A DNA stretch of 64,000 nucleotides from Propionivibrio dicarboxylicus (GCA_945902805.1 CAMDMZ010000016.1:27420-91419), one strand, 5' to 3'; positions 1-37,613 are shown, counted from the stretch's first letter. Notes: generated by a model from the sequence alone, not told the origin. Numbers and translations: made by a program.

Positions 1-380
1 AAGGCATCACCTTCCGTTTCGCCAGCGCCGCACACAAGGCCTTGTTTGACCAGGCGCCCGAAAAATACCTGCCGCAGTTTGGTGCCTATTGCGCCAATGG
101 CATTGTCTACGGCATCCCCTGGGGCGGCGATGCCGATACCTGGAAGATGATCAACGGCAAGCTCTACATCTTTGGTGGCCAAGGATCGAAAGACGCCTTT
201 GAGCTGGATGAGAAGGCCAACCTGGCCCTGGCCGAGAAATATTGGCGCGAGGAAATTGCCGGCCACAATAGTTTCGTGCAACGCTTCAAGCGGCTGATCC
301 TGCGCGTGCCGCACTACCGCAGCGGAGAAGATTTGGCGCGCGCCGTCGCACAAGCGAAGACGGCCGGAGCAACGAAATGA
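1..380 (+). CDS. YHS-domain protein, C-terminal part (5' end outside window)
   Basis: Frame 3 is open from base 3. The translation GITFRFASAAHKALFDQAPEKYLPQFGAYCANG... fits the YHS/TRASH-type pattern. Stop TGA 378-380 overlaps the next ATG (ATGA). Confidence 0.65.
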   Translation, partial: GITFRFASAAHKALFDQAPEKYLPQFGAYCANGIVYGIPWGGDADTWKMINGKLYIFGGQGSKDAFELDEKANLALAEKYWREEIAGHNSFVQRFKRLILRVPHYRSGEDLARAVAQAKTAGATK

Positions 381-1327
381 ACTCACCGCGCCTGATTCAA
401 ATCGCCCACGACGACCCGGCCGCGATCCGCGACGAATTGCTTGCCGGCCTCGCCGCCCCAACGGCAACGATATCGCCCAAGTATCTCTACGATGCGCTCG
501 GCTCGCGCTTGTTTTCAGCGATCACCGAACTGCCCGAGTATTACCCGACGCGCACCGAGGCGGCGATCTTTACCGAGAAAATGCAGTCGATGGCCGAGGC
601 CCTTGGCCCGGTGGCGACACTGGTCGATCTTGGTGCCGGCAATTGCGAAAAGGCTGCCCGTCTGTTCGATCCATTCCAGGTGCAGCGCTACGTGGCGATC
701 GATATTTCGGCCGACTATTTGCGCGAATCGCTGGAGAACCTCCAGCGCCAGCATCCGGCCATGGATATGCTCGGCATGGGTCTGGATTTTTCATCGACCC
801 TGCGTTTGCCGGCAGAACTCGGCGACGCGCCGCGTACCCTGTTTTATCCGGGGTCCAGCATTGGCAATTTCACGCCTGAAGATGCCTTGGTCTTCCTGCG
901 CCAAGCTCACGCCGCGTGCCAGGGCGGCGCGCTGCTGATCGGCGTCGATCTGGTGAAACCGATCGCGATTCTGGAGCCGGCCTACGACGATCCTCTCGGC
1001 GTCACGGCGGCCTTCAATCGCAATATGCTGCGCCACCTCAACCAACTGGCGGGTACCAACTTCAACATCGCGGATTGGCGGCATGTGGCCTTTTTCAATG
1101 CGGCGGCATCACGCATCGAAATGCATCTGGAAGCCGTGCGCGATGTATTGGTCAGTTGGCCGGGCAGCGAACGGCGTTTTGCCACTGGCGAGCGCATGCA
1201 CACCGAAAACTCCTACAAATGGCGCGCCGATGACTTCGCTGCCCTGCTCCAAAGCGCTGGCTTCACGCGCCTGGAACGCTGGACCGATGACAACCAGTGG
1301 TTCGCCGTTTTCGCCGCTTTTTCCTAG
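377..1327 (+). CDS. egtD: L-histidine N-alpha-methyltransferase (hercynine synthase, EgtD family)
   Basis: 316-aa ORF with SAM-binding loop VDLGAGNCEKA and the EgtD-typical C-terminal HTENSYKW motif. Translationally coupled to the upstream YHS gene. Confidence 0.85.
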   Translation: MNSPRLIQIAHDDPAAIRDELLAGLAAPTATISPKYLYDALGSRLFSAITELPEYYPTRTEAAIFTEKMQSMAEALGPVATLVDLGAGNCEKAARLFDPFQVQRYVAIDISADYLRESLENLQRQHPAMDMLGMGLDFSSTLRLPAELGDAPRTLFYPGSSIGNFTPEDALVFLRQAHAACQGGALLIGVDLVKPIAILEPAYDDPLGVTAAFNRNMLRHLNQLAGTNFNIADWRHVAFFNAAASRIEMHLEAVRDVLVSWPGSERRFATGERMHTENSYKWRADDFAALLQSAGFTRLERWTDDNQWFAVFAAFS

Positions 1328-1343
1328 GCCTAGACGCGTGTAT

Positions 1344-1369
1344 CGCCGTCCCGCCAGCACCGACTTTTT
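1344..1369 (+). repeat. dispersed 26-nt repeat copy R1 (CGCCGTCCCGCCAGCACCGACTTTTT)
   Basis: Exact consensus. Lies between the convergent egtD stop and the senA-like stop; its T-run overlaps the TAA of the minus-strand gene. Confidence 0.85.
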
Positions 1370-2534
1370 AGAGCATGCAGCTACGGAATCCGGTATGCAC
1401 GTCATTGCGCTCCGGCGTGAAGTAATTGCGATAACGCGGATGCGCCATGCGCGGATCGGTCGCGCGACTAGCGCCTTTCAACACGTAGCGATGCTCTTCA
1501 AAACCAAAGCGCGAATAGTCGCGGTAGGGATGGGCAACAAAGCCGGCGAAGGGCGCAAAGCGGCTCGACGTCCATTCCCAGACTTCGCCCCAGGCGAAAT
1601 TCGGCTGGGTCAGCGCGGCACATTCCCACTCGGCCTCGGTCGGCAGGCGACGATTCGCCCAACGGCACCAGGCCTCGGCCTCGTGCCAGCTCACATGGAC
1701 GGCGGCGGTATCGAGATCGATCACCTCCCAGGCACCGAAGCGCATGGCCTGCCAGACGCCCCGCTCCCTGCGCACATAGCGCGGAACGGCGACGGCACCC
1801 ACATCAACGGCGGGCAGGAAGCGGCGCCACGTTACCGGCACGCTATCGATGGCGAACTCGGCCAGGGGCACGTCATGGGCGAGCAGTTCATTGTCGAACG
1901 CGAAGTCGGGACCGTCATGTCCCAACCGCCAGCCAGTCGCCGGAACCGCAATATCAGTCGCCAAGGGCAACGGGCGCTGCCACGGACGCAGGTGCGCAGG
2001 CAGCGGAATGTCGAGTGCCTGCGCCATATAGACGGCGGCCTCGGCGTGCATGTCTTCGTGGAACAGCGCGAGGCGATAGAAATACAAGGCGTCCGACCCC
2101 ACCTGGCCCACCGGCTCATGCGCCAGCAAGGCCAGCGTTTCGGCCAGGCTGGCATCGAGATAGGCTTTTGTCGCCGCCAGATTCGGCAGCGGCAGGCTCC
2201 AGCGTTTTTCGTGCGCGATCAGACTGGAGTTATAGAGCGCGTCGGCGCCAGCCATGCGGCCCTCGGGACGAAAGTGTTCGGGATCGCACGCCAAGCCCAA
2301 ACCACGCTGTTGATTGCGGGCAATCCAGATGTCGTAAAACCAGGCGACATGACCGACTTCCCAGCGCGGCGGATTGAATTGCGTGCTGTACGGAATCACC
2401 AAGTCCGCGCCCAGTTTGGCGACGTAGGCATCGAGCAGATCCAGCGTGCGGCGGCGGGCATCCTGCAGCGCGGTGGCAAGAAAAGCGGCGTTGCTACCGC
2501 GAGCGAGACGGGCGAGTGAAAAGTCAGTAGTCAT
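1368..2534 (-). CDS. EgtB/SUMF1-family non-heme iron sulfoxide/selenoxide synthase, SenA-like
   Basis: DinB-like N-terminus with His ligands (EVGHVAWF; FHEDMHAE = H-x3-H-x-E) and an FGE-sulfatase fold (RLPTEAEWE, VWEWT). Start set at ATG 2534, which has GAGG 8 nt upstream; the ORF-track start at 2612 looks like an extension. Adjacent to senB/senC-like genes. Confidence 0.7.
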   Translation of the reverse strand: MTTDFSLARLARGSNAAFLATALQDARRRTLDLLDAYVAKLGADLVIPYSTQFNPPRWEVGHVAWFYDIWIARNQQRGLGLACDPEHFRPEGRMAGADALYNSSLIAHEKRWSLPLPNLAATKAYLDASLAETLALLAHEPVGQVGSDALYFYRLALFHEDMHAEAAVYMAQALDIPLPAHLRPWQRPLPLATDIAVPATGWRLGHDGPDFAFDNELLAHDVPLAEFAIDSVPVTWRRFLPAVDVGAVAVPRYVRRERGVWQAMRFGAWEVIDLDTAAVHVSWHEAEAWCRWANRRLPTEAEWECAALTQPNFAWGEVWEWTSSRFAPFAGFVAHPYRDYSRFGFEEHRYVLKGASRATDPRMAHPRYRNYFTPERNDVHTGFRSCML

Positions 2535-3543
2535 GAAACAAACCTCAACGAAAAATGGTGGGCAACAACTTGTCATTGTCACCCCGGCGCTGGCCGATGC
2601 CAATAATGGCAACTGGCAAACGGCCTGGCGCTGGCAGCGCTTTCTTTCGCCACTTTACCCGACTCGGCTGGTCAAGGCCTGGCCCGATGAACGCGCCGCT
2701 GACGATACGCTGATGATCGCCCTGCACGCGCGGCGCTCGGCCGATTCCATCGCTGCCTGGCACGCCCGGCATGGCAGCGACCGTCTCGCCGTTGTGCTGA
2801 CCGGTACCGACTTGTACCGCGATATCCGGCACGACGCGAAGGCACAACGTTCGCTGGCGCTGGCGCGGGCATTGGTGGTATTGCAGGAGTGTGCGCCGCA
2901 ATCGCTGCCAGAAGCGCTACGCGGCAAAGCCCGCGTCATCTTTCAATCAACCACCACCCGCCAGACCTTGCCCAAATCGCCGCACCGTCTGCGCGCCGTG
3001 ATGGTCGGCCATTTACGTGACGAAAAGTCGCCCAAGACTTTATTCGCAGCCGCCCGCCAGTTGGCGTCACACCCGGCCATTCATATCGATCATATCGGTG
3101 AAGCGCTCGATCCGGCGCTTGGTGCCGCCGCGCGTGCCACCATGGCCGTCGCCCCCAACTATCGCTGGCTGGGCGGCTTGCCACACGCCGAGGTGCGGCG
3201 ACGCATCCAGCGCGCCCACGTGTTAATTCACGCCAGCCGCATGGAAGGCGGCGCCCATGTGGTCATGGAGGCTGTCGCCAGCGGTACGCCCGTGCTGGCC
3301 TCGGCGATTGACGGCAATATCGGCATGCTGGGCGCCGACTACGCGGGCTATTTTCCCTGCGGTGATTCGGCGGCACTGGCAGCACTGATTCTGCGTTGCC
3401 ACGACGGTCACATGCAACCGGATGGCACAACTCTACTGGACCAGTTGGCGGCGCAATGCCGCGATCGCGCGCCCCTGTTCGAGCCGACGAGCGAGCGAAA
3501 CGCACTGCACCGTCTGGTCAATGAATTGCTTGGAGAGCATTGA
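2533..3543 (+). CDS. GT-B glycosyltransferase-like protein, SenB-like selenosugar synthase candidate
   Basis: The first in-frame ATG before the conserved N-terminus LVIVTPALADANNGNWQTAWRW is at 2533. GT4-like SRMEGGAHVVMEA motif. Stop abuts the SelD-fusion start (TGAATG). Confidence 0.65.
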   Translation: MKQTSTKNGGQQLVIVTPALADANNGNWQTAWRWQRFLSPLYPTRLVKAWPDERAADDTLMIALHARRSADSIAAWHARHGSDRLAVVLTGTDLYRDIRHDAKAQRSLALARALVVLQECAPQSLPEALRGKARVIFQSTTTRQTLPKSPHRLRAVMVGHLRDEKSPKTLFAAARQLASHPAIHIDHIGEALDPALGAAARATMAVAPNYRWLGGLPHAEVRRRIQRAHVLIHASRMEGGAHVVMEAVASGTPVLASAIDGNIGMLGADYAGYFPCGDSAALAALILRCHDGHMQPDGTTLLDQLAAQCRDRAPLFEPTSERNALHRLVNELLGEH

Positions 3544-5823
3544 ATGCAAGCCACTGCGACACCTGTTTTGAGAGACATCGTCATGATCGGCGGGGGCCAC
3601 AGCCACGTCGGCGTGCTCTACATGTTCGCCATGAAACCCATCCCCGGCGTGCGTCTGACGGTGATTTGCACGGATACCGATACGCCCTACTCGGGCATGC
3701 TGCCCGGCTACATCGCCGGCCACTACAGTTTTGACGACGTGCATATCGATTTACGCCGCCTGGCCGAATTTGCCGGTGCGCGCTACCTGCGCGATGAAGT
3801 GATCGGCATCGATCGCGCGTCGCGCAAAGTGCTGTGCCGAAACCGGCCGCCGGTACCCTACGATGTCCTGTCGATCAACATCGGCTCGACGCCCCGGCTG
3901 GATGGCGTCGCCGGGGCGAACGAGCACGCGGTGCCGGTCAAGCCGATCCGCCGTTTTAATGAACGCTGGCTGGCGTTGCTTGAGCGCGTTTGTCGCCATG
4001 ACGGCGCCACCACCATCGCCGTCGTCGGTGCCGGCGCGGGTGGGGTTGAGCTGGTCTTGTCCATGCAGTTCCGTTTGCGCAAAGAACTCATGGCTCTGGG
4101 GCGAAACCCCGACGCCCTGCGCTTCCATTTGTTCTCGGCTGACGCGCAAATCCTGCCGACACATAACGCCGCAGTACGCCGTGCCTTCGAGCAGGTGTTA
4201 GCCGAACGCGGCGTGATAGTGCATCGCGATGCCGAAGTCACGCAGCTCAGCGCCGGGCGCTTGCAAACCCGGGCCGGCGAGGTCGTCGAGGCTGACGAAA
4301 TTGTCTGGGTAACGCAAGCAGGGGGCGCCGCGTGGTTGCGCGATACCGGCTTGGCGCTCGACGACAAGGGTTTCATTCGCGTCCGTGACACGCTGCAAAC
4401 CGAAACGGACCCGCTGATTTTTGCGGCTGGTGATTGCGCTGCGATGATGGGACGGCCCTTGGAAAAAGCCGGTGTATTTGCCGTGCGCATGGGCCGCCCG
4501 CTGGCCGAGAATCTGCGCCGGACGCTGCTGCGTCAGCCCTTGAACGACTACCGCCCGCAGCAGCGCTGGCTGGCGCTGATCAGCACCGGCGACCAACACG
4601 CGATCGCCTCGCGCGGTGCGTTTTATGCGCGTGGCGATCTGGTCTGGCGCTGGAAAGACTGGATCGACCGCCGCTTCATGCGCAAGTTCACCGAGTTTTC
4701 CACCACCATGACGAGCACGGCGGCGACGGCCGATGCGACGATTCCGCTCGACGACGTGGAACAGACCCAGGCCATCTCGGCCATCGCCATGCGCTGCGGT
4801 GGCTGCGGTGCCAAGGTGGGTGCCAGCGTGCTCTCCCGCGCGCTGGCGAGCGTTCAGCCGATCGAGCGCGACGACGTCCTGATCGGCCTGCATGCACCCG
4901 ACGATGCCGCTGTGGTGCGCGTTCCCGCCGGCAAGGCGATGGTGCACACCGTCGACTTCTTCCGCGCCTTCATCGATGACCCGTACATCTTCGGCCGCAT
5001 CGCCGCCAATCACGCGCTCGGCGACGTCTTCGCCATGGGCGGTGAGGCGCAATCGGCGACGGCGATTGCCACCGTACCGCCGGGCCTGGAAAGCAAGGTG
5101 GAAGACACCGTGTTTCAAATGATGGCAGGCGCCGTGTCCGTACTGAACGACGCCGGCTGTGCGCTGGTCGGCGGCCATACCGGCGAAGGCAAGGAACTCG
5201 CGCTCGGCTTTGCCATCAACGGCCTGATCGACGAACAGCTCGACAGCGTGATGCGCAAAGGCGGCATGCGCCCGGGCGATGTGCTGATCCTGACCAAACC
5301 GATCGGCACTGGCACTTTGTTCGCTGCCCATGCCCAACTCAAGGCACGCGGGCGCTGGATCGATGCCGCGTTGGAGTCAATGCAGATTTCGAACCGGGCT
5401 GCCGTGCCCTGCCTGATCGCCCATGGCGCGACCGCCTGTACCGATTTGACTGGCTTCGGCCTGCTCGGCCATCTGGTCGAAATGACGCGGCCGTCAGGTG
5501 TCGATGCCGAGCTTGATCTGGCCGCCTTGCCGGTTCTCGACGGTGCCGCCGAAACCGCCGCAGCCGGTATTCTCAGTTCATTGCAGCCCGCCAATGTGCG
5601 CTTGCGGCGGGCGTTGCGCAATCAGGAAGCGGCGCTCAAACACCCCAACTATCCGCTCTTGTTCGATCCACAAACTGCCGGCGGCCTGCTTGCCAGCGTA
5701 CCGATGGCAAGTGCGGAAGCCTGTATCAACGAACTGCGCATTCTGGGCTACCCGGCGACCACGGGCATAGGCCGGATCGTCGCTCAAGGGGATGCATTGG
5801 AGCCGATCAGCCTATCGGTTTGA
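3544..5823 (+). CDS. selD: FAD-dependent pyridine nucleotide-disulfide oxidoreductase fused to selenide,water dikinase (SelD/SenC-like)
   Basis: 759 aa. N-terminal Rossmann motifs IVMIGGGHSH and VVGAGAGGVE. The C-terminal half carries the SelD glycine-rich loop RCGGCGAKVG (Cys421/Lys424) and an AIR-synthase-like fold (DDAAVV..., LVGGHT). Confidence 0.85.
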   Translation: MQATATPVLRDIVMIGGGHSHVGVLYMFAMKPIPGVRLTVICTDTDTPYSGMLPGYIAGHYSFDDVHIDLRRLAEFAGARYLRDEVIGIDRASRKVLCRNRPPVPYDVLSINIGSTPRLDGVAGANEHAVPVKPIRRFNERWLALLERVCRHDGATTIAVVGAGAGGVELVLSMQFRLRKELMALGRNPDALRFHLFSADAQILPTHNAAVRRAFEQVLAERGVIVHRDAEVTQLSAGRLQTRAGEVVEADEIVWVTQAGGAAWLRDTGLALDDKGFIRVRDTLQTETDPLIFAAGDCAAMMGRPLEKAGVFAVRMGRPLAENLRRTLLRQPLNDYRPQQRWLALISTGDQHAIASRGAFYARGDLVWRWKDWIDRRFMRKFTEFSTTMTSTAATADATIPLDDVEQTQAISAIAMRCGGCGAKVGASVLSRALASVQPIERDDVLIGLHAPDDAAVVRVPAGKAMVHTVDFFRAFIDDPYIFGRIAANHALGDVFAMGGEAQSATAIATVPPGLESKVEDTVFQMMAGAVSVLNDAGCALVGGHTGEGKELALGFAINGLIDEQLDSVMRKGGMRPGDVLILTKPIGTGTLFAAHAQLKARGRWIDAALESMQISNRAAVPCLIAHGATACTDLTGFGLLGHLVEMTRPSGVDAELDLAALPVLDGAAETAAAGILSSLQPANVRLRRALRNQEAALKHPNYPLLFDPQTAGGLLASVPMASAEACINELRILGYPATTGIGRIVAQGDALEPISLSV

Positions 5824-5850
5824 GCAGGACGCAGCGCCGATATCAATCTG

Positions 5851-5876
5851 CGCCGTGCCGTCAGAACCGACTTTTT
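5851..5876 (+). repeat. dispersed repeat copy R2 (3 mismatches)
   Basis: CGCCGTGCCGTCAGAACCGACTTTTT, 28 nt after the selD-fusion stop. Confidence 0.65.
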
Positions 5877-6008
5877 CAGATTGGACGCAAGCCCGGCGGG
5901 AGTCAAGCCAGGAAAATCAAGTCAGAAACCGTGGTCCATCCCATATTCTGCGAAGTCACCAGTTCTGAGTAGCTTTATCGCGCGGCACTCGTGTGGGCTG
6001 CCGAGTTA

Positions 6009-7175
6009 CTACAGTTGCCGACGCGCAAGACAAACGCGATTACGGCCGGCTTTCTTGGCCTCGTAAAGCGCTTTGTCCGCGCGCTGCAGTACGGCGTGAA
6101 TGTCGACGTCGCCCGCGTTAGCCGTTGCTAGTCCGATGGATGTGGTGATCCGCAAGGACTGACCGTTCGGAGTCATGACCGGCTCACCTGCTAGTAAGGC
6201 GCGAATTCGTTCTGCGACGGCAGATGCCTGATCTTCGGTGGTACCAGGCATGACGGTGACAAACTCTTCGCCTCCCAGTCGGGCAACAATGTCAGTTTCG
6301 CGCGCCATGTCACGCAACACGCGCGCAGTGTGTACCAGGACGACGTCGCCAATGGCGTGACCGTAGGTGTCGTTGATCGACTTGAAATGATCAAGGTCGA
6401 ACGCCAAGGCTGACAGGGCTTGCGGTTGGCGTTTGCGTCGTGCCCATTCACGTTGCGTCTGCTCCTCGAATGCTCGCCGATTGAGCAGACCCGTCAGTGG
6501 GTCGTGATTGCTCATGCGCTCAAGCTCTTCGCGCAGCCGTTCGGAGGCCAGCAGAATAGTGCTGATAATGAACAGCAGCATGATGAACGGGTAGGTGGTA
6601 ACGTAGAAAACCTGGATCGGTGTGTTGTCGAGTATGCCGACCATTTGCGGGTTGATCAGCGAGGCGCTATAGCGAATGACCTGTAAGGCAGCGGCACTTA
6701 CCAAAACACCGGTCAGCATCAGGCGCGGGAAAGTGTGGATGCCGTGTCGGTAAACCAGCCAGGAGTGCAAGCAAAACAGGTAGGTTTGTAGCGCAGATGT
6801 AATGGCAAGGCGAACCGCGTAGCTGTAATCGACCAGCGCGAACCAGGCCAGCACCAAAATTACGGCTGCAATCAATAACCACCCTTGCACAAGTTTTGGG
6901 GTGACCCCAAAGAAGCGTTGAGTGCCAACATAGCTCAGGTAGATACCGGACATCAGCACGGCGTTTGCAATGCTGATTCTCAGGTTCTCAGTTGCCTGCC
7001 CACCGACGGCGAACAGGGGGCCTGTGACAAAGAAGAGCAGGACGGCTGCTGCCCATTCGCCTAAACCCCTGACGGTGGGCGGATAGCTGCGCCTTAGGAT
7101 AAGGAGCACCATGGCCAACATGCCTGCCAACAAGCCGGTCAGCAGGACGATGGTGCGGGGATCCACTAGACTCAT
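6009..7175 (-). CDS. membrane-anchored diguanylate cyclase (GGDEF)
   Basis: About 200-aa multi-TM N-terminus followed by a GGDEF domain with active site RLGGEEF and an I-site RETD 5 residues upstream. Confidence 0.85.
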   Translation of the reverse strand: MSLVDPRTIVLLTGLLAGMLAMVLLILRRSYPPTVRGLGEWAAAVLLFFVTGPLFAVGGQATENLRISIANAVLMSGIYLSYVGTQRFFGVTPKLVQGWLLIAAVILVLAWFALVDYSYAVRLAITSALQTYLFCLHSWLVYRHGIHTFPRLMLTGVLVSAAALQVIRYSASLINPQMVGILDNTPIQVFYVTTYPFIMLLFIISTILLASERLREELERMSNHDPLTGLLNRRAFEEQTQREWARRKRQPQALSALAFDLDHFKSINDTYGHAIGDVVLVHTARVLRDMARETDIVARLGGEEFVTVMPGTTEDQASAVAERIRALLAGEPVMTPNGQSLRITTSIGLATANAGDVDIHAVLQRADKALYEAKKAGRNRVCLARRQL

Positions 7176-7333
7176 GTTGTCACCTTGAGTTCACCCATAG
7201 CACCAAAATCGATAGGAAATCCAACGCGAAATGGGTAAGCATCCTCATCTGGGCCGCCGCAGTCAATCACCGTTTCGGCAGAGAAAAGAGCAATAACGGA
7301 CCAGGCTCGAATTAAATTATCAGGACAATTCAT
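7172..7333 (-). CDS. hypothetical 53-aa protein (below the ORF-track cutoff)
   Basis: Hand translation: MNCPDNLIRAWSVIALFSAETVIDCGGPDEDAYPFRVGFPIDFGAMGELKVTT. Its TGA overlaps the GGDEF ATG (ATGA at 7172-7175). Starts 4 nt after the ArsM-like stop. No clear SD and low GC3. Confidence 0.3.
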   Translation of the reverse strand: MNCPDNLIRAWSVIALFSAETVIDCGGPDEDAYPFRVGFPIDFGAMGELKVTT

Positions 7334-7336
7334 AGG

Positions 7337-8377
7337 TCAGCAGCACCCGCAGTCTTCCTCGCCTGCGGGCGTCTCACCAAAGGGTAGGGCTTTGCCGCAG
7401 CCTTGAAAGATGCCGTAATGGCGCGTGAAGTCGCCAATGAAGTCGAAGTGCGGTGCCAGTCGACTCTCCTTGAGCATGCGATACGTATTGCCGCAGACCG
7501 GAAAGACCCGGCCGACTTCGATCCGGTGGTGCTTGTCGAGGGCGAAGGCGTGCGCATGCTCCGGAATGGTGCCGCGATAGATAACAGCCTGGCCGTGGTC
7601 CTCGCAGTCGGACTCCAGCCCGTCGAGATTGAACAGTCGGTAAGTCGCAGAGAAGAAACGCACTCCGGCGGTACGCGGCAGAAGTGCCGGATCGGTGATG
7701 GCGAGCGGACGATCCTCGACCAGGCGTGGGTCAGTAAAGCCGGCCGCGCGAGAAAGCCGCAGGAAATCATTCCAATAGAGCGCTCCGCCGAGACATTCAC
7801 CGTAGAGCACCGGGTCGTTCTTCACTGACTCCGGCACGCGCCGGTCGGCGTAGACATCGGAAAAATAGAACTTGCCGCCCGGCTTGAGCAAGCGTTGTAC
7901 GCCACGCAGCACGGCTTCCTTGTCGGGCGAGAGATTTACCACACAGTTGGAGACGATGACATCGAAGCTGCCCGGTTCCAGATCCAGTTCGTCGAGACGT
8001 TCGATGTAACCGGACAGGAAACGCACGTTGGCGAAACCGAAACATTCGGCGTGCCAGGTGCGATGCCGCTCGGCGACGGCGAGCTGTTCGTCGGTCATGT
8101 CCACGCCGACCACCTCCCCCTTGGGGCCGGCCATTTGCGCCAGGGCATATACATCACGCCCTGAACCGCTGCCGAGATCGAGCACGCGGCAGCCTTCCAG
8201 TAGCGGCGGGCAGACCAGCCCACAACCGTAATAGCGTTCCAGCACTTCCGGATGGATGCGCGCCAGCAGCGATTTGAGCCAGGCCGGCGCGCTGGAGGCG
8301 TCGCAGCAGGCAGATGTTTTCAGGTCGGCGGAGCCCGACAGTTGCTTGCCGTAGTAGTCCTTCACGAGTTCATGCAT
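7337..8377 (-). CDS. SAM-dependent methyltransferase, ArsM (arsenite methyltransferase)-like
   Basis: LDLGSGSGRD SAM motif plus ArsM-pattern cysteines: TSACC, YYGCGLVCP, SNCVVNL, YGECLGGAL. Cys-rich C-terminus DCGCC. Confidence 0.7.
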   Translation of the reverse strand: MHELVKDYYGKQLSGSADLKTSACCDASSAPAWLKSLLARIHPEVLERYYGCGLVCPPLLEGCRVLDLGSGSGRDVYALAQMAGPKGEVVGVDMTDEQLAVAERHRTWHAECFGFANVRFLSGYIERLDELDLEPGSFDVIVSNCVVNLSPDKEAVLRGVQRLLKPGGKFYFSDVYADRRVPESVKNDPVLYGECLGGALYWNDFLRLSRAAGFTDPRLVEDRPLAITDPALLPRTAGVRFFSATYRLFNLDGLESDCEDHGQAVIYRGTIPEHAHAFALDKHHRIEVGRVFPVCGNTYRMLKESRLAPHFDFIGDFTRHYGIFQGCGKALPFGETPAGEEDCGCC

Positions 8378-8399
8378 GTCATTTTCTGTCGTGTGATTT

Positions 8400-8912
8400 C
8401 TAGCGCGGCGTGATCGCTTGCAAAATGCCCTGCATCAAGACCAGCGGTGTGGGCGGACAGCCGGGGATGCGAACGTCGACGGGGATGACGTTTTCCACCG
8501 CGCCGCAGGTGGCGTAGTTCGGGCCGAACAAGGCGCCGACCTCACCGCAACCGCAGCCGCAATCACCCACCGCTACGACCAACTTGGGGTCGGGCGTGCA
8601 GTCGTAGACGATCTTCAGCGCGTTTTCCATGTTTTTGGTTACCGGCCCGGTGACCAGCAACATGTCGGCATGGCGCGGGCTGGCGACAAACTTGATGCCA
8701 CGCCCTTCGAGGTTGTAGTAGGGATTATTGAGCGCATGAATCTCCAGCTCGCAGCCGTTGCACGAACCGGCGTCGACCTGGCGGATGGTCAGAGCGCGGC
8801 CAAGGATAGTGAGAATTTCACCATGGAGGCGTTGGGTTTCGGCGGCGGGTATTTCCGGTACCGATTCTGTCACGATGCCGGTCTTGAAGATGCGTCTGAG
8901 CAGCGGAATCAC
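8400..8912 (-). CDS. NuoB/HycG-type small subunit of the Hyf/Ehr-like complex
   Basis: 170 aa with retained 4Fe-4S ligand motifs GSCNGCELE, GDCGCGCG and IPGCPP. ATGA overlap with the large-subunit stop. Confidence 0.85.
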   Translation of the reverse strand: MIPLLRRIFKTGIVTESVPEIPAAETQRLHGEILTILGRALTIRQVDAGSCNGCELEIHALNNPYYNLEGRGIKFVASPRHADMLLVTGPVTKNMENALKIVYDCTPDPKLVVAVGDCGCGCGEVGALFGPNYATCGAVENVIPVDVRIPGCPPTPLVLMQGILQAITPR

Positions 8913-10468
8913 AGGTCGGCCCCGCTATAGGAAAGATTGAACGACTTGTTGATGAGCGGGAAGTCGGGAACGATGTCGTTCATCACCGCATGTTCCAGCG
9001 CCGGCCAGCATTGCCAGGAGGGGTCGTGCGGATGCACGCGCGCCAGCTTGCCAACGGCATCGAATTCCAGGCCGACCAGCACTTCGCCACGCCAGCCTTC
9101 AATGACACCAAGGCCGGCACCCCCAGCCACCGGCGTGATCGTCGTCAGAATTTCGCCGGCCGGCATGCCGACCGCCATGGCGCGCAACAAGCGCAAGGAC
9201 TCGAAGATTTCGTCGAAACGCACCGCCACACGCGCCGCCACGTCGCCGCGCTCATCGGTAACCGGCCGCACGCCCAGCGCGGCATAGGGCGGTGGCGGCG
9301 TGTAATCCTGACGATATACCCGGCCATCGAGAATCATGCCGGTGGCGCGGGCGGCCATGCCGGTGAGCGAGAGTTCGTGGGCAAGGTCGGTATTGATGAT
9401 GCCGGTGGTGAGGAAGCGGTCTTGCAGACCGGCGTGATTGTCGTAGATGGCGCGCAGTTCGCTGACCTCGCGTGCGAATAGTTCGCATTGCTCGACCATG
9501 CGCGCCAGCGCTTCCGGCGCCAAATCGTGGCTGACGCCACCGGGCACGATGCGATCCATCATGAAGCGGTGGCCGAACAGATCGGCATTCAGGCGCAACC
9601 AGTCTTCCTTTAGACGCATGAATTGCGTCAGACCAAAGGCAAACGCGGCATCGTTGCCGAGCGCGCCGAGGTCGCCGAGATGATTGGCGACGCGCTCGCG
9701 CTCCAGCATCACGGCACGCAGCATGAGCGCGCGTGGTGATGGTGTAGCGCCGCACGCCGCTTCGACGGCCGCCGCATACGCCCAGGCATAAGCACAAGTG
9801 GAATCGCCGGAAATCCGCCCGATCAATTTCGCACCGGTCAAAAAGTCGGTGCTGGCGAGACGGTGCTCAACGCCCTTGTGCTGGTAACCGAGGCGTTGTT
9901 CCAGGCGCAACACGCGTTCTCCAACCACCGAGAAGCGGAAATGTCCGGGCTCAATGATACCGGCGTGGATCGGGCCGACCGGAATCTCGTGCGCGCCCTC
10001 TCCGCCGACCTTAACGAAGTCGTAGTCAGTGGGGGCATTGGTAAAGTCGGCATGATCGCCCGCATCATGGCGCAGCGGAAACCAATCGGCCGGCCAGCCG
10101 CCGTGGCGCAGCCAGGGGCGCTGGTCGGGACCATCGTGCCGGATGTCGAGCAAATCGAACGTGGCGCGCTGCATTCGGTTCGCGGCCGGGAAGATTCCCG
10201 ACAGATCGGGACACGTCGGATTTTCGGCAGGCAGATCGAGGCGCAACCACTGCCAGCCCTCGGTCAGCGCAAATACGCAGTGCAGGCGGAATCCGCCAGC
10301 TCGCTCGCGCTCATCGCTACCCCAAAGAGCCGACAATCGTCCCTGATGGCGGTGGACGGAAATGGCGTAGCGCAGCAGGTCTTCGCCATCAACCGCGCGG
10401 CCGTGCCAAACCGGCGCGCCCACCCCGGGCTGGGGAGTGAATTCGATGGGTTCGGCGTGGAAGCGCAT
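8909..10468 (-). CDS. NuoC-NuoD/HycE-type large subunit homologue lacking the Ni-Fe cysteine ligands
   Basis: Start set at ATG 10468 (MRFHAEPIEF), 2 nt after the upstream stop; the 628-aa track ORF is an extension. Shows GPIHAGIIEPGHFRF and LGYQHKGVEH. Reads GRISGDST where R-x-C-G-x-C is expected, and SFNLSYSGADL* where D-P-C-x-x-C is expected. Confidence 0.85.
   Translation of the reverse strand: MRFHAEPIEFTPQPGVGAPVWHGRAVDGEDLLRYAISVHRHQGRLSALWGSDERERAGGFRLHCVFALTEGWQWLRLDLPAENPTCPDLSGIFPAANRMQRATFDLLDIRHDGPDQRPWLRHGGWPADWFPLRHDAGDHADFTNAPTDYDFVKVGGEGAHEIPVGPIHAGIIEPGHFRFSVVGERVLRLEQRLGYQHKGVEHRLASTDFLTGAKLIGRISGDSTCAYAWAYAAAVEAACGATPSPRALMLRAVMLERERVANHLGDLGALGNDAAFAFGLTQFMRLKEDWLRLNADLFGHRFMMDRIVPGGVSHDLAPEALARMVEQCELFAREVSELRAIYDNHAGLQDRFLTTGIINTDLAHELSLTGMAARATGMILDGRVYRQDYTPPPPYAALGVRPVTDERGDVAARVAVRFDEIFESLRLLRAMAVGMPAGEILTTITPVAGGAGLGVIEGWRGEVLVGLEFDAVGKLARVHPHDPSWQCWPALEHAVMNDIVPDFPLINKSFNLSYSGADL
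9840..9866 (-). repeat. dispersed repeat copy R3, inside the large-subunit CDS
   Basis: AAAAAGTCGGTGCTGGCGAGACGGTGC on the plus strand (2 mismatches). Read in the gene sense as H-R-L-A-S-T-D-F-L. Confidence 0.75.
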
Positions 10469-10470
10469 CG

Positions 10471-11928
10471 CTAGCCCAGCATGCGCGCGGCTTCCTGGAA
10501 CCAGCGCGTCAGGTAAGGGGGAATGTAGAGCCCGAGCATCAGCACAATGGCCAGATGCAGGAACACTGGCGTGATGGCGGGTGCATGAGGCAAGCGCTTT
10601 GCCTCCGTCTCGCCGAACACCATGGGTTGCACCTTGCCGAATATTGCCGCGAAGGCGACGCCAAGCGCCAACAGCAGGAACGGCGTGGCCCAGGGATGAT
10701 GTTTCATGGCATGCGTCAGGATCATGAACTCGCTGGCGAAAACGCCGAATGGCGGCATGCCGAGAATCGCCAGCGTGCCCAGCATCAGGCCCCAACCGAT
10801 CAAGGGATTGACGTGTATCAGGCCGCGGATATCGTCCATCATTTGGGTGCCGGTTTTCTGCGTGGCATGGCCGACCGCGAAGAAGATGGCCGACTTGGTC
10901 AGCGAGTGCATAGTCATGTGCAGCAGGCCAGCGAAGTTGGCCACCGCACCGCCCATGCCGAAAGCGAAAGTGATCAGGCCCATGTGCTCGATGGAGGAAT
11001 AGGCAAACATGCGCTTGACGTCGCGCTGTCGCGAAAGAAAGAAGGCCGCCAGCAGCAGAGTGAACAAACCGAAGCCCATCATCAGGTTGCCAGCAAAGGC
11101 GCCCTCGATGGCACCGTCAGCGAGCACCTTGCAGCGCAGGATGGCGTACAGGGCGACATTGAGCAACAAACCAGAAAGCACGGCAGAAACCGGCGTCGGC
11201 CCCTCGGCGTGGGCGTCGGGCAGCCAGTTGTGCAGCGGCGCCAGGCCGACCTTGGTGCCATAGCCGACGAACAGAAAAATGAACGCCAGCGCCATGATAT
11301 TCGGCTCAAGAAAGGCCTTGACGTTGACCAGGTGCGTCCACAGCAAGGCGTTACCACTTTCACCCAGAATGCGTTCGGCGGCGAAGTACAGCAGGATGGT
11401 GCCGAACAGCGCCTGAGCGATACCAACGCCACAGAGGATGAAGTATTTCCAGGCCGCTTCCAGGCTGGCTGGCGTGCGGTAGAGCGATACCAATAGTACG
11501 GTGGTGAGTGTCGCCGCCTCCATCGCCACCCACAGAATGCCCATGTTGTTGGTGGTGAGCGCCACCAGCATGGTGAACATGAAGAGCTGGTACATGCTCT
11601 TGTAGAGCCGCAGGCGTGGAATGGTAAGGCGGCCGTGCGCGGCCTCGTTCTTCATGTAGGGGCCGGAAAAGATGCTGGTGGTGAGGCCGACAAACGCAGT
11701 CAAGGCGACAAAGAACACGTTGAGTGAATCGATGAAAAACTGCTCGCCAAAGGCAAAACGCGGGCCATCGGTAATGATGCTGATGGTCAGCCACACGGCG
11801 GCAATAAAGGTGCCGCCACTGGCAATGATGTTGAGATGAGGCGCCCAGTCGCGTTCGCCAAACACTGTCAGCAAGGCACCGCTGACGAGGGGAATGGCGA
11901 GCAGGATAACGAAGATATCGAACGTCAT
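10471..11928 (-). CDS. HyfF/NuoN-like antiporter-type membrane subunit
   Basis: 485-aa polytopic protein of the proton-conducting NuoM/N/Mrp family (WLPDAHAEGPTPVSA). ATGA overlap with the upstream gene. Confidence 0.8.
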   Translation of the reverse strand: MTFDIFVILLAIPLVSGALLTVFGERDWAPHLNIIASGGTFIAAVWLTISIITDGPRFAFGEQFFIDSLNVFFVALTAFVGLTTSIFSGPYMKNEAAHGRLTIPRLRLYKSMYQLFMFTMLVALTTNNMGILWVAMEAATLTTVLLVSLYRTPASLEAAWKYFILCGVGIAQALFGTILLYFAAERILGESGNALLWTHLVNVKAFLEPNIMALAFIFLFVGYGTKVGLAPLHNWLPDAHAEGPTPVSAVLSGLLLNVALYAILRCKVLADGAIEGAFAGNLMMGFGLFTLLLAAFFLSRQRDVKRMFAYSSIEHMGLITFAFGMGGAVANFAGLLHMTMHSLTKSAIFFAVGHATQKTGTQMMDDIRGLIHVNPLIGWGLMLGTLAILGMPPFGVFASEFMILTHAMKHHPWATPFLLLALGVAFAAIFGKVQPMVFGETEAKRLPHAPAITPVFLHLAIVLMLGLYIPPYLTRWFQEAARMLG

Positions 11929-12596
11929 CAGTTGTCCTTGAGGCGTTCCATGTGGTGGATGTCCAGGCTGTCGAACTGGTCGCGAATCTGGAAGAAGAAC
12001 ACACCGAGAATGAGCGCGCCGACCAGAACGTCCAGTGCGATTCCGAGTTCAACGACCATCGGCATGCCGTAAGTGGCGCTGGTGGCGGCGAGGAACAGAC
12101 CATTTTCCATCGACAGGAAGCCCACCACCTGGGAAATCGCCTTACGCCGCGTAATCATCATCAGGAAGGCGAGCATCACCACGGCCAGCGCAATACCCAA
12201 TGTGCCGCGCGTGATGGTGTGCGAAAGCTGCGAGATCGGCAAGGCGACATTGAAAGCAATGATGACCAGGCCGATGCCCACCAGCATGGTGGTCGGAATA
12301 TTGATCAGTGCCTCGACCTCGCCCTTGATTTGCAGGCGATGCATCAGCCGGTTGAGGATCCACGGTAGTAACAAGGCCTTCAACAGGAGCGTTAGCCCGG
12401 CCGACCAGTACAGGTGCGATTGGCCGGTGGTCACCGCCACCACGAGCGTGGATAGAAACAGCATGAAACCTTGCAGGGCAAACAGGTTGATGAGTTGCAT
12501 CACACGCCGTTGCGCCAGCATGGCGAAGGTCAGCAGCAGAATCACAGATGCGCATAAGTTGATGAGTTGCGCAGTGAGCGGGATAGTGGCGCTCAT
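11928..12596 (-). CDS. HyfE-like small membrane subunit
   Basis: 222-aa hydrophobic protein in the HyfE position. ATGA overlaps at both ends. Confidence 0.7.
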   Translation of the reverse strand: MSATIPLTAQLINLCASVILLLTFAMLAQRRVMQLINLFALQGFMLFLSTLVVAVTTGQSHLYWSAGLTLLLKALLLPWILNRLMHRLQIKGEVEALINIPTTMLVGIGLVIIAFNVALPISQLSHTITRGTLGIALAVVMLAFLMMITRRKAISQVVGFLSMENGLFLAATSATYGMPMVVELGIALDVLVGALILGVFFFQIRDQFDSLDIHHMERLKDN

Positions 12597-13549
12597 GCTT
12601 TCACCTCAAGCAGCAATCTGACCAGCAAGCCGAGAACAGCGAGTAGGAACGCGGTGCCGAGATACTCCGGGGCGCGGAAAATGCGCAGCTTGGCATTGAC
12701 CGTTTCGAGCAGAGCCAACAGGAAGCCACCCACCAGCAGCTTCAACACCAGCAGCGGAATTGCTGCCACCAGCGCCATGAAATTGTCGCGTTCGGCGATG
12801 CCCCAGGGCAGAAACAGAGCTAGCCCAAGACAGGAGTACGCATAGAGCTTGAGGCAGGCCGCCCATTCAATCAGCGCGAGATGGCGCCCTGAATATTCGA
12901 GGATCATGGCCTCGTGGATCATTGTCAGCTCAAGATGGGTGGCGGGGTTATCCACGGGCACGCGGGCATTTTCGGCGAAGGCGACGAAGGTGAAGGCGAT
13001 TCCGGCGAAGGCGAGACTGGGATAAATGATGAAGTCACGATGCGCAAGCGTCTCGACGATGGTCGCCACCGAGGTCGATTGAGCGATCATCGCCACGGTA
13101 AAGATGACCATCAGCAGCGCCGGTTCGGCGAGGAAGCCGATCAGCATTTCACGCCTGCCGCCGAGAGTGCCGAACGAGGTGCCGATATCCATTGCCGCCA
13201 AGGAAATGAATACCCGCGCTAGACCGAAGACACCGACCAGCGCCAACGCGTCCGCCGCCGGCGCCAGCGGCAGGTCGGTCGACAAGGTGGGAATGATGGC
13301 GCAGGCCAGCACCATGCAGCCGAAGACGACGAAAGGTGCAAAGCGAAACAGCGGTGATGCCGTTTCAGCCAGCACCACATCTTTGTTGAAAAGCTTGCGC
13401 AGCATGAAGTATGGCTGCCACAAGGGCGGCGCGGAACGACTTTGCAGCCAGGCCCGACACATGCCCAGCCAGCCCAACAGCAGCGGCGCCAGTACCAGCG
13501 CCAGAGCAATGGCGAAAGCTTGGCCGATCAAACCGGAAATACTGATCAC
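12593..13549 (-). CDS. HyfC/HycD/NuoH-like membrane subunit
   Basis: Start set at GTG 13549 (VISISGLIGQAFAIALAL...), overlapping the upstream TGA (GTGA). The 604-aa track ORF is an extension into the upstream gene. Confidence 0.75.
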   Translation of the reverse strand: MISISGLIGQAFAIALALVLAPLLLGWLGMCRAWLQSRSAPPLWQPYFMLRKLFNKDVVLAETASPLFRFAPFVVFGCMVLACAIIPTLSTDLPLAPAADALALVGVFGLARVFISLAAMDIGTSFGTLGGRREMLIGFLAEPALLMVIFTVAMIAQSTSVATIVETLAHRDFIIYPSLAFAGIAFTFVAFAENARVPVDNPATHLELTMIHEAMILEYSGRHLALIEWAACLKLYAYSCLGLALFLPWGIAERDNFMALVAAIPLLVLKLLVGGFLLALLETVNAKLRIFRAPEYLGTAFLLAVLGLLVRLLLEVKA

Positions 13550-15564
13550 GGTCGCGCCACCAACAGCAAGAGCAGCAGCGTGATGAAGCTGTACATCAGA
13601 TAGACCGCAATGCGACCGCCCTGCAAGGTGGTGATGCGCATCGAAAGCCAGGCGGCCAGGCGCGCAATTGGCAGATAAAGCCAATGCCAGAAATGATCCT
13701 CGACTTGAACGCTGTAATACGGTTCGCGATCGCGGGCAGTCGGTAAGTGGCGCTGCATACGGAACATCGGCTCGAAGATGCGGCGTATCGGCTGGCTGAA
13801 ACCTTCGGCCGTATCCTGCGCGCGCGGCCCTTGAAAATGGTACCCGCAATCCCACGCCGCTGAGCGTCGCCCACGACCATGGTAAAGGTGATGGACCAGC
13901 CAGCGCCCGAGCCAAACCGAGAGGACGATGGTCACCAGAAAGATAACCGACTCGTAACTGGCTCGTTCCGGCGAGATCGGCGCCAGCATCCACCAACCGT
14001 GGTCGCGCACATGTTCGGACAGCCCAGCGCCCAACAGCTGGCGGGTGGCCGCATCGATGCGCAGGATGACGGTTGCCGGCATGATGCCGAGCAACACCGT
14101 GATCAGGGCCAGCCAGACCAGTCCGGCCTTTTCCCAAACCCCGGCATCGTGGGCGTCCTTGAGCGAATCTTCGCGCATCTGACCAAGAAAGATGATGCCG
14201 TAGAACTTGACCATGGCGAAGCCGGCCAGCGCCGCGACCAGCGCCACTACAGCGGCGGCGACGGGAACGACCATGTTGAGCCAGGCATGCGGCAAACCCG
14301 GCGAAAAGAGAAAGCTCTGCAGCAACAGCCATTCGGACACAAAGCCGGAAAGTGGTGGCAAACCGGCACTGGCGATTACGCCGACCAAGGCCAGCCAGGC
14401 CACCCAAGGCATACGGTGAATCAAACCACCGAGTTTGCCCAGGCTACGTTCCTTGGTGGCATGCAACACCGAACCCGTGCAAAGGAAGAGCAGGCTTTTG
14501 AATCCGGCGTGGGCAAGGCAATGGTAGAAGACGGCGGTCAAGGCCAGCGCAGCCAGAGCCTCCATGCGGTAACTATGGAAGATCAGCGCCAGGCCAATAC
14601 CGATCGCCAGCAAGCCGATGTTTTCGATGGACGAATAGGCGAGCAGACGCTTCATGTCGGATTGCACGGTGGAATACAGCACACCGAACAGCGCGGTCGC
14701 CAGCCCGATCGCCAGCGCCACCACGCCCCACCACCAAATGGGTGTGCCAACCAGATCGAAGCTAACGCGCAGCAAGCCATAAATGGCGGTCTTCAGCATC
14801 ACGCCGCTCATCAACGCAGACACGGGCGACGGTGCCGCCGGATGCGCTTCTGGCAGCCAGACATGCAGCGGCAATAAACCGGCCTTGGCACCAAATCCCA
14901 CCAGCGCCAGCAAATAGGCGGCCGAGGACCAGAAGGGCGAAAGCTGCTGCGCCCGCATACCGGCGAAACTGTAGTCGCCACTGCCCCCGGCACCCCCCGT
15001 CATCACACCAAACGACAGCAAGATCGCAATCGCGCCAATATGGGCGATCAGCAGGTACAAGAATCCGGCGCGACGGATGGTCTCGTGACGATGATCGGTC
15101 GTCACCAGAAAGAAAGAAGACAAAGCCATGGTTTCCCAGGCCACCATGAACGCGTAGGCATCATCGGCCAGCAACACCAGCAACATACTGGCGAGAAAGA
15201 TGTGATATTCGAAACACAACAGACCCGGCGCGGTGCCTTCGCCCTGCCGAAAATAACCAGCAGCAAAGATCGAAATGCCGGCCGAGACAAAACCTAGCAG
15301 CGTCACGAAGATGGCGGAAAGGTTGTCGAGCCGCAGATGGAAAGGCAGATCGGGCAGGCCAATAACCAACACCGCAGTCTGCGACGTGGCACCGAGCGAA
15401 GCAAGGCCGACGATGCCCGCCAACACGCTGACCAGGGCACCCAGCGGAAACAGTGTCTTGGCGATGAAGCGGGTTTTGCGCGGCGCCATAAGCCCGGCCA
15501 GACCGAGAATCGCCCAGACACAGGCGGCAATCAGCAGGGTATCGATAGCGAGCAATGATGGCAT
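13546..15564 (-). CDS. HyfB/NuoL-like antiporter-type membrane subunit
   Basis: 672-aa polytopic protein with NuoL/Mrp motifs (LPLHVWLPEAHPAAPSPVSALMSG). Confidence 0.85.
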   Translation of the reverse strand: MPSLLAIDTLLIAACVWAILGLAGLMAPRKTRFIAKTLFPLGALVSVLAGIVGLASLGATSQTAVLVIGLPDLPFHLRLDNLSAIFVTLLGFVSAGISIFAAGYFRQGEGTAPGLLCFEYHIFLASMLLVLLADDAYAFMVAWETMALSSFFLVTTDHRHETIRRAGFLYLLIAHIGAIAILLSFGVMTGGAGGSGDYSFAGMRAQQLSPFWSSAAYLLALVGFGAKAGLLPLHVWLPEAHPAAPSPVSALMSGVMLKTAIYGLLRVSFDLVGTPIWWWGVVALAIGLATALFGVLYSTVQSDMKRLLAYSSIENIGLLAIGIGLALIFHSYRMEALAALALTAVFYHCLAHAGFKSLLFLCTGSVLHATKERSLGKLGGLIHRMPWVAWLALVGVIASAGLPPLSGFVSEWLLLQSFLFSPGLPHAWLNMVVPVAAAVVALVAALAGFAMVKFYGIIFLGQMREDSLKDAHDAGVWEKAGLVWLALITVLLGIMPATVILRIDAATRQLLGAGLSEHVRDHGWWMLAPISPERASYESVIFLVTIVLSVWLGRWLVHHLYHGRGRRSAAWDCGYHFQGPRAQDTAEGFSQPIRRIFEPMFRMQRHLPTARDREPYYSVQVEDHFWHWLYLPIARLAAWLSMRITTLQGGRIAVYLMYSFITLLLLLLVARP

Positions 15565-16680: not shown

Positions 16681-16987
16681 GTCGAACCGTCACGTTAAGA
16701 CTTACACCGCAAATATAGGAACTAAATGGTCGCAATCACCACGTTGGAGTACGCGTTGATTTGAATCTCCGGGCGAAAAGCCACTCCGAAAATGCAACAG
16801 GATTTTGGATTGTAGCTGCCTTTGGAGACATTGCTACCGGACACTTTGTCGATTTCTGTGCACCGACGATGGCTTCTTGGCCCTGCGAAACAGCGTTTTA
16901 GTCGAAATGTAAGCAATCCGCGTGAAAGTCGTCAAAATTGGACCAACCAGTCGTCGCTGCGGCTGACCAACAACGCCAGGAGTGTTC

Positions 16988-37542: not shown

Positions 37543-37578
37543 TGAAAACCGCTCGCCCAATGGAAATTGCCAACCAAG

Positions 37579-37603
37579 CGCCGTCCCGCCAAAGCCGACT
37601 TTT
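37579..37603 (+). repeat. dispersed repeat copy R8
   Basis: CGCCGTCCCGCCAAAGCCGACTTTT in the 71-nt tpsA-tpsB spacer. Confidence 0.75.
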
Positions 37604-37613
37604 AGGATCGACC

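Follow-up and report, generated by a model that had tools for sequence, protein, structure and literature searches.

We analysed a 64,000-nucleotide stretch of Propionivibrio dicarboxylicus DNA (GCA_945902805.1 CAMDMZ010000016.1:27420-91419, hereafter the window), whose first 5,823 nucleotides carry a putative gene cluster for the biosynthesis of the selenium antioxidant selenoneine, the sen cluster. From a list of open reading frames (ORFs) over 1-9000 and a translation of the frame from base 3, we found five ORFs in this block. The + strand opens with the 3' part of a gene for a YHS-domain lipoprotein (1-380; the C-terminal 125 codons, with a partial match to model NF041384), followed by egtD (377-1327), which is predicted to encode a hercynine-forming L-histidine N-alpha-methyltransferase of 316 amino acids (aa). 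On the - strand lies senA (1368-2534), for a predicted non-haem-iron selenoneine synthase of 388 aa. The + strand continues with senB (2533-3543), for a predicted selenosugar synthase (a Se-glycosyltransferase of GT-B fold, 336 aa), and senC (3544-5823), for a 759-aa fusion of a flavoprotein with the selenophosphate synthetase SelD. GC content is uniform at 60-65% over the whole block. Proteins were scored with curated models against the NCBI equivalog cut-offs, and the domain folds, cross-checked with Pfam, were in agreement; judged on the sequences, these scores far exceed what would be expected by chance.

An earlier, sequence-only reading of this DNA had described the product of 1368-2534 as a divergent EgtB-family enzyme with an intact iron site and had grouped it with SenA rather than with EgtB or OvoA, and both descriptions are borne out. 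The protein passes the SenA model NF041186 (445.8, cut-off 420) and fails the models for EgtB (TIGR03440; 188.7, cut-off 360) and OvoA (TIGR04344; 49.6, cut-off 400). Its top solved relative is Variovorax paradoxus SenA (8ryz, also 8k5i; 53.5% identity to 8ryz, E 3e-109), with OvsA at E 1e-41 and EgtBs at 1e-21 to 1e-24. The iron-site motif H-x3-H-x-E is present as HEDMHAE (residues 159-165), and identity to a canonical type II EgtB, an ergothioneine sulfoxide synthase encoded outside the cluster (60094-61386, + strand), reaches only 26%. The iron triad H62, H159 and H163 aligns with H71, H167 and H171 of V. paradoxus SenA, and Y337 (the catalytic tyrosine), N370, F372 and R376 align with Y363, N395, F397 and R401. 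We took the roles of these residues from the structure paper, in which Y363 and N395 bind hercynine (TMH) and Phe397 is equated with Asp416 of M. thermoresistibile EgtB (PMC11237966). F372 of the window protein shows the expected replacement of Asp416 by Phe or Tyr. Since the type II EgtB at 60094-61386 also has Phe at this position, the replacement separates SenA from type I EgtB only. H108 corresponds to H117 of V. paradoxus SenA and may stand where Arg87 of M. thermoresistibile EgtB is replaced by His; when only the N-terminal domain of SenA was searched against the PDB, 4x8b (M. thermoresistibile EgtB) was not among the matches.

The assignment of the 2533-3543 product to the SenB family, made earlier with its NNGNWQTA N-terminus in view, is confirmed by TIGR04348 (443.3, cut-off 300) and by 61% identity to V. 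paradoxus SenB (8fbx/8jjq, E 2e-119). NNGNWQTA occupies residues 24-31 and was among the most conserved family peptides chosen by our locus-finding step. Residues N27, T30, Q138, R162, K165, H218 and E238 correspond to N20, T23, Q131, R155, K158, H211 and E231 of the V. paradoxus enzyme. An exact-sequence look-up of the window SenB gave no record. The closest SenB, 96% identical, was found in ENA metagenome data; among named organisms, Thauera, Aromatoleum and Accumulibacter have SenB proteins of about 72% identity. Judged by these relatives, the DNA probably comes from a Rhodocyclales-like proteobacterium.

SenC combines two enzymes in one chain. Its N-terminal domain (residues 1-382, 3544-4689) is predicted to be a flavoprotein binding flavin adenine dinucleotide (FAD) and NAD(P)H and resembling type II NADH dehydrogenases (NDH-2-like). 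Residues 11-382 pass TIGR03169 ('N-terminal to SelD'; 508.4, cut-off 310), Pfam Pyr_redox_2 matches, type II NADH dehydrogenases come closest among solved structures (4nwz, E 2e-18), and the nucleotide-binding loops GGGHSH and GAGAGG are visible in the sequence. A linker (about residues 383-410) leads into the C-terminal SelD domain of the Cys type (linker and domain, 4690-5823). Here residues 416-722 pass the SelD model TIGR00476 (295.1, cut-off 125), Pfam AIRS and AIRS_C match, and E. coli SelD (3u0o) is recovered at E 1e-43, with C421 and K424 in the motif CGGCGAK aligning with C17 and K20 of that protein. The earlier call of a selenophosphate synthetase is therefore well founded. Among 31 fused proteins, CGGCGAK and the N-domain Cys42 are invariant and Cys98 is nearly so. 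Because the fusion passes TIGR03169 and falls short of TIGR04369 ('oxidoreductase/SelD-related fusion, not SelD'; 468.1, cut-off 700), it groups with the true SelD fusions. Fusions of NADH-dehydrogenase-like proteins with SelD have been known since 2008, when the flavoprotein was proposed to serve SelD by reducing a selenium compound (Zhang et al. 2008, PMC2432076).

EgtD, which had likewise been named from the sequence, passes TIGR03438 (374.5, cut-off 290.9), matches Pfam Methyltransf_33 at E 4e-102 and finds the structure of M. smegmatis EgtD (4pim) at E 1e-51. Upstream of it, a YHS protein had also been announced; the gene is there, although only its 3' part lies in the window. The frame is open from base 3 up to the stop at 378-380, so that the gene continues past the left edge. 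The fragment scores 51.8 bits against NF041384 (cut-off 70), covering profile positions 44-112, and falls below the cut-off because the gene is cut by the window edge, with 69 of the 113 positions inside. A full-length orthologue on a metagenome contig (our locus L081), 87% identical over the shared part, reaches 100.6 against the same cut-off. By comparison with it, about 78 N-terminal codons of the gene, with the signal peptide and lipobox, fall outside the window; in the orthologues an N-terminal signal peptide is followed by a lipobox L-[AS]-[AG]-C. The YHS protein would be an exported lipoprotein co-transcribed with egtD. Cys30 of the fragment (nucleotides 90-92) lies within a (Y/F)G(G/A)YCANG motif whose cysteine is conserved in full-length YHS proteins. 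The NF041384 family includes selenoproteins, first described in PMC1976440, and a review gives their selenocysteine (Sec) motif as GxU; Cys30 probably occupies the family's Sec position in its Cys form. Separately, in several genomes the sen-associated YHS gene is accompanied by a divergent gene for a second, longer paralogue of the YHS lipoprotein family, with 34-37% identity (L022:9219-9578, L037:4764-5123 and L040:6679-7032, all on the - strand).

The genes of the cluster are packed with almost no space between them. The YHS stop codon TGA overlaps the egtD start in the sequence ATGA, and the senC ATG directly abuts the senB stop codon. At the head-to-head junction of senA and senB, the two start codons share a CATG at 2532-2535 (both strands, read directly from the sequence), senA starting on the - strand from 2534 to 2532 and senB on the + strand from 2533 to 2535. 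A GAGG Shine-Dalgarno sequence lies 8 nucleotides upstream of the senA ATG at 2534. With zero spacer between the two starts, each promoter must sit within the coding sequence of the partner gene. The cluster is very probably organized as three tightly packed transcription units with its own hercynine supply.

Taken together, these genes suggest an intact sen-type selenoneine biosynthetic cluster with its own egtD, a reading to which we assign a probability of roughly 0.9. Enzyme identities and catalytic residues rest on homology here, and the chemistry is taken from the V. paradoxus literature. In the proposed pathway, EgtD would trimethylate histidine to hercynine, and the SelD domain of SenC would convert selenide and ATP into selenophosphate. 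SenB would then transfer a sugar from a uridine diphosphate (UDP)-sugar onto selenophosphate, giving a 1-seleno-sugar; UDP-N-acetylglucosamine (UDP-GlcNAc) is the donor preferred by V. paradoxus SenB. SenA, as an Fe(II)- and O2-dependent enzyme, would couple this selenosugar to C2 of the hercynine imidazole, forming the C-Se bond, and the resulting selenoxide would shed its sugar to leave selenoneine. The NDH-2-like domain of SenC may form selenide from an oxidised selenium species at the expense of NAD(P)H and could pass it to the fused SelD. The sen-cluster EgtD is possibly shared and may also supply hercynine to the lone type II EgtB 57 kb away, for which the window contains no separate egtD.

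We also asked how common this layout is, using a SenB-seeded scan with one genome per species in which the best 80 of 596 confirmed loci were compared by tblastn with the window proteins. senA is divergent from and adjacent to senB in 43 of these 80 SenB loci. Among the 55 with at least 9 kb upstream, egtD is found in 36 and the YHS gene in 10. The type of SelD downstream could be read in 63 loci with enough sequence: 26 carry a fused SenC and 2 carry both halves, but not in a single ORF; in 20 SelD stands alone, and in 15 no selD is adjacent. A reductase::SelD fusion had been named by the sequence-only reading; the fusion is present and does differ from the characterised stand-alone SenC, but at 26-28 of 63 loci it is a common variant and no local trait. 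Three genome loci (L011, L018, L027) show exactly the order YHS-egtD-senA(reverse)-senB-fusion, as do metagenome loci L081, L084, L090, L096, L108, L112-L115, L117, L142 and L143, and a Variovorax genome locus (L046) has the fused SenC type with divergent senA and senB. When the innermost possible start codons are used, the senA-senB spacer is at most 50 bp in 56 of 70 related loci and zero or less in 14 of 70, indicating that head-to-head compaction is a property of the family and not peculiar to the window locus. Other arrangements were seen as well. In L055, egtB-egtD directly adjoins senA. In many SenB loci, senB is immediately preceded by egtD and followed by a selD, and within 10 kb there is no homologue of SenA at 40% identity or more; SenB loci lacking a nearby SenA include L012, L014, L017, L035, L047, L056, L061, L066, L068 and L075. 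The enzyme that forms the C-Se bond for such loci is either elsewhere in the genome or a different one.

The relatives further indicate what may lie to the left of window position 1. Of the related contigs, the closest is L081 from a Joint Genome Institute (JGI) metagenome, with 88% nucleotide identity to window positions 9-5794. Upstream of its YHS gene, with overlapping stop and start codons, it carries genes for a 452-aa ATP-grasp protein and a 241-aa DedA/VTT membrane protein (L081:365-3050). Because of the 88% identity, we infer that ATP-grasp and DedA genes flank the window locus on its left as well. The ATP-grasp gene precedes YHS in every locus with enough upstream sequence; in sen clusters it stands immediately upstream of YHS or egtD, often with a DedA/VTT gene before it (ATP-grasp upstream in L081, L011, L018, L022, L027, L037, L038, L040, L043, L045, L049, L079 and L083-L162). 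Conversely, 38 metagenome loci seeded with the ATP-grasp protein and having at least 3.5 kb downstream contain egtD in 30, senA in 29 and senB in 28. The L081 ATP-grasp protein gives only sub-threshold Pfam matches to ATP-grasp_4 and carbamoyl-phosphate synthetase, and in a PDB search only weak ones, to carbamoyl-phosphate synthetase (8e-5) and BacD (0.9). A PADLOC scan of the L081 ATP-grasp and YHS proteins found no defence family. Searches of the literature collection used here returned nothing relevant linking ATP-grasp to selenoneine and nothing relevant on sen cluster architecture after 2022. It is possible, though we hold it only tentatively, that the selenoneine cluster of this clade is part of a larger conserved cassette of DedA, ATP-grasp, YHS Cys/Sec lipoprotein, egtD, senA (divergent), senB and flavoprotein::SelD. 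If so, the ATP-grasp and YHS proteins would represent undescribed dedicated accessory functions, conceivably a module for selenium acquisition or delivery or a ligase tailoring hercynine or selenoneine, and with the fused flavoprotein domain the pathway would provide its own selenide. We consider the ATP-grasp lead genuine but modest.

Several observations weigh against reading the locus as a selenoneine cluster. In SenB, two nucleotide contacts differ from the V. paradoxus enzyme, R22 being replaced by Q and T214 by V. In a set of 23 relative sequences, Q is the consensus at the R22 position (within NNGNWQTA), and V at SenB residue 221, the T214 position, occurs solely in the window protein; given these substitutions, the donor preference of SenB could differ. 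To our knowledge, the fused type has never been assayed as SenC. The SenC characterised from V. paradoxus consists of SelD alone (about 350 aa; sequence in the supplement of preprint 10.1101/2022.04.13.486033) and is only 35% identical to the SelD domain in the window, which is assigned by its sequence to a different lineage. A scan of 1-8500 for promoters and terminators gave no significant signal, with counts at or below those of shuffled controls; a single promoter-like match, which lies upstream of senA within the senB coding sequence (2603 to 2575, - strand), was not significant. Finally, that the YHS protein handles selenium or metals outside the cytoplasm is a guess.

These points leave room for other explanations of the same genes. 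That this is a sulfur cluster making ergothioneine with an unusual EgtB, with no selenium involved, would fit the adjacency of EgtD to an EgtB-superfamily enzyme and the weak activity of V. paradoxus SenA with thioglucose (10.1101/2022.04.13.486033). Set against the failed EgtB equivalog model (188.7 vs 360), the presence of both SenB and a bona fide SelD in the cluster, and the separate canonical EgtB at 60094, it is extremely improbable. The product could instead be another selenometabolite, such as an ovoselenol-type compound or a selenoneine derivative modified by tailoring, and not selenoneine itself. OvsA selenoxide synthases are, after all, the second-best solved relatives of SenA, and tailoring is conceivable where, as in the relatives, YHS/egtD is directly preceded by an ATP-grasp ligase gene, with senA present in 29 of the 38 ATP-grasp-seeded loci. 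Ovoselenol, however, derives from histidine and not from hercynine, and the cluster contains a hercynine-forming EgtD, pointing to selenoneine. SenA passes its own model, matches V. paradoxus SenA with an E value about 70 orders of magnitude below that for OvsA and keeps the hercynine-binding Y363 and N395 as Y337 and N370, and the ATP-grasp gene lies outside the window, so we judge a different selenium product to be quite unlikely. A further question is whether the flavoprotein::SelD protein is simply the cell's general selenophosphate synthetase for selenocysteine or selenouridine, its place beside senB being incidental or shared. NADH-dehydrogenase-like::SelD fusions are widespread and were first found in genomes with selenoproteins and other Sec machinery (PMC4561486), and the 15 of 63 SenB loci without an adjacent selD imply that SelD can act from elsewhere in the genome. 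Yet senC begins directly at the senB stop, the fused gene follows senB in 26-28 of the 63 loci, and the 64-kb window contains no selA, selB, selU or tRNA-Sec, making a purely general role unlikely; a shared role would not contradict a function in selenoneine synthesis. A selenoneine cluster remains our preferred interpretation, and it marks the source organism as a probable selenoneine producer. Positions 377-5823 would then form a compact four-gene set that should supply its own hercynine and selenophosphate, possibly also its own selenide, and that might perhaps be useful for heterologous production.

Elsewhere in the window, the type II EgtB at 60094-61386 passes the EgtB model (TIGR03440, 578.1 vs 360) and fails the SenA model (384.7, cut-off 420), and its top solved relative is Chloracidobacterium thermophilum EgtB (E 2e-145). 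It lies between ahpF (58323-59888) and katG (61548-63716), an oxidative-stress neighbourhood with no egtD alongside; the only egtD in the window is the sen-cluster copy. Rfam and tRNA scans of the whole window found nothing, neither a tRNA-Sec nor a riboswitch. Downstream of the cluster, an ArsM-like S-adenosylmethionine (SAM) methyltransferase is encoded at 7337-8377 on the - strand (NF008823, 170.8 bits, cut-off 263), 1.5 kb past senC, with a convergent GGDEF gene (6009-7175) in between. We considered the ArsM-like protein as a cluster member for selenium methylation; it is probably not one, as the convergent GGDEF gene intervenes and both genes are absent from the syntenic GCA_041442895.1, in which senC is followed by a hydrogenase-like operon. 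In the window, a hydrogenase-4/complex-I-like module (8400-15564, - strand; NuoB-like, fused NuoC/D-like, HyfF-like, NuoH-like and HyfB-like subunits) adjoins the sen cluster, the same neighbourhood as in GCA_041442895.1. Some 11 kb from the cluster, 16982-19144 (+ strand) encodes a 720-aa fusion of DedA/VTT (residues 74-186) with a class I pyridine nucleotide-disulfide oxidoreductase of the MerA/lipoamide-dehydrogenase type. A two-partner secretion system at 33700-39317 (+ strand) consists of a 1280-aa TpsA exoprotein with a C-terminal caspase domain (Peptidase_C14), followed by a ShlB/FhaC-type transporter. The window also holds a PilS/NtrC-type two-component pair, phosphoenolpyruvate (PEP) carboxykinase, malic enzyme, PEP carboxylase, hemD, hemX, hemY, indolepyruvate oxidoreductase, an RlmN-like protein, AhpF and KatG. 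Outside the sen cluster, the window is ordinary chromosome.

Compared with what has been published, the locus brings no new concept to the pathway described in 2022 and is a known, widespread kind of cluster in a common layout. The sequence-only reading had rightly called the pathway known and the locus not novel. The only points beyond the published description are the fused SenC, the conserved ATP-grasp/YHS/DedA neighbours, and the head-to-head senA/senB junction lacking a promoter signal. The pathway was reportedly discovered in 2022 in the Seyedsayamdost laboratory. The preprint (Kayrouz et al. 2022) names a three-gene cluster senA/senB/senC, defines sen clusters by an egtB homologue, a TIGR04348 protein and selD within 5 kb, finds 827 of them, and records a co-localised egtD in a subset (10.1101/2022.04.13.486033). 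In the window, senA (1368-2534), senB (2533-3543) and the SelD domain (about 4774-5823) all fall within 5 kb, and the suggestion of a senABC set joined by a hercynine supplier is in line with that published cluster. The enzyme set is shared with senABC of V. paradoxus DSM 30034, with conserved catalytic residues. Unlike that system, the SelD of the window is fused to a 380-aa flavoprotein domain, which V. paradoxus SenC does not carry; the cluster contains egtD, as only a subset of sen clusters do; and a YHS lipoprotein gene is predicted to be co-transcribed with egtD.

The EgtB/EgtD pathway (type II EgtB, C. thermophilum 6qki) likewise uses hercynine made by EgtD and an enzyme of DinB_2 plus FGE-sulfatase fold with an H-x3-H-x-E site, but its chalcogen donor is cysteine, whereas the window cluster would use a selenosugar from SenB and SenC. 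OvsA also works with a selenosugar supply of the SenB/SenC type. It belongs to the same superfamily as SenA (8u41/8ux5; PMC11030361) and is a much weaker match to the window synthase, at 1e-41 vs 3e-109; that synthase is closest to SenA and not to OvsA. The NADH-dehydrogenase-like::SelD fusions described earlier (PMC2432076; Mariotti 2015, PMC4561486) share with SenC the domain order and the Cys-type SelD, and both curated models are passed. Those two studies treat the fusions in the context of Sec and selenouridine only, whereas the fusion in the window is predicted to be the SenC of a selenoneine cluster.

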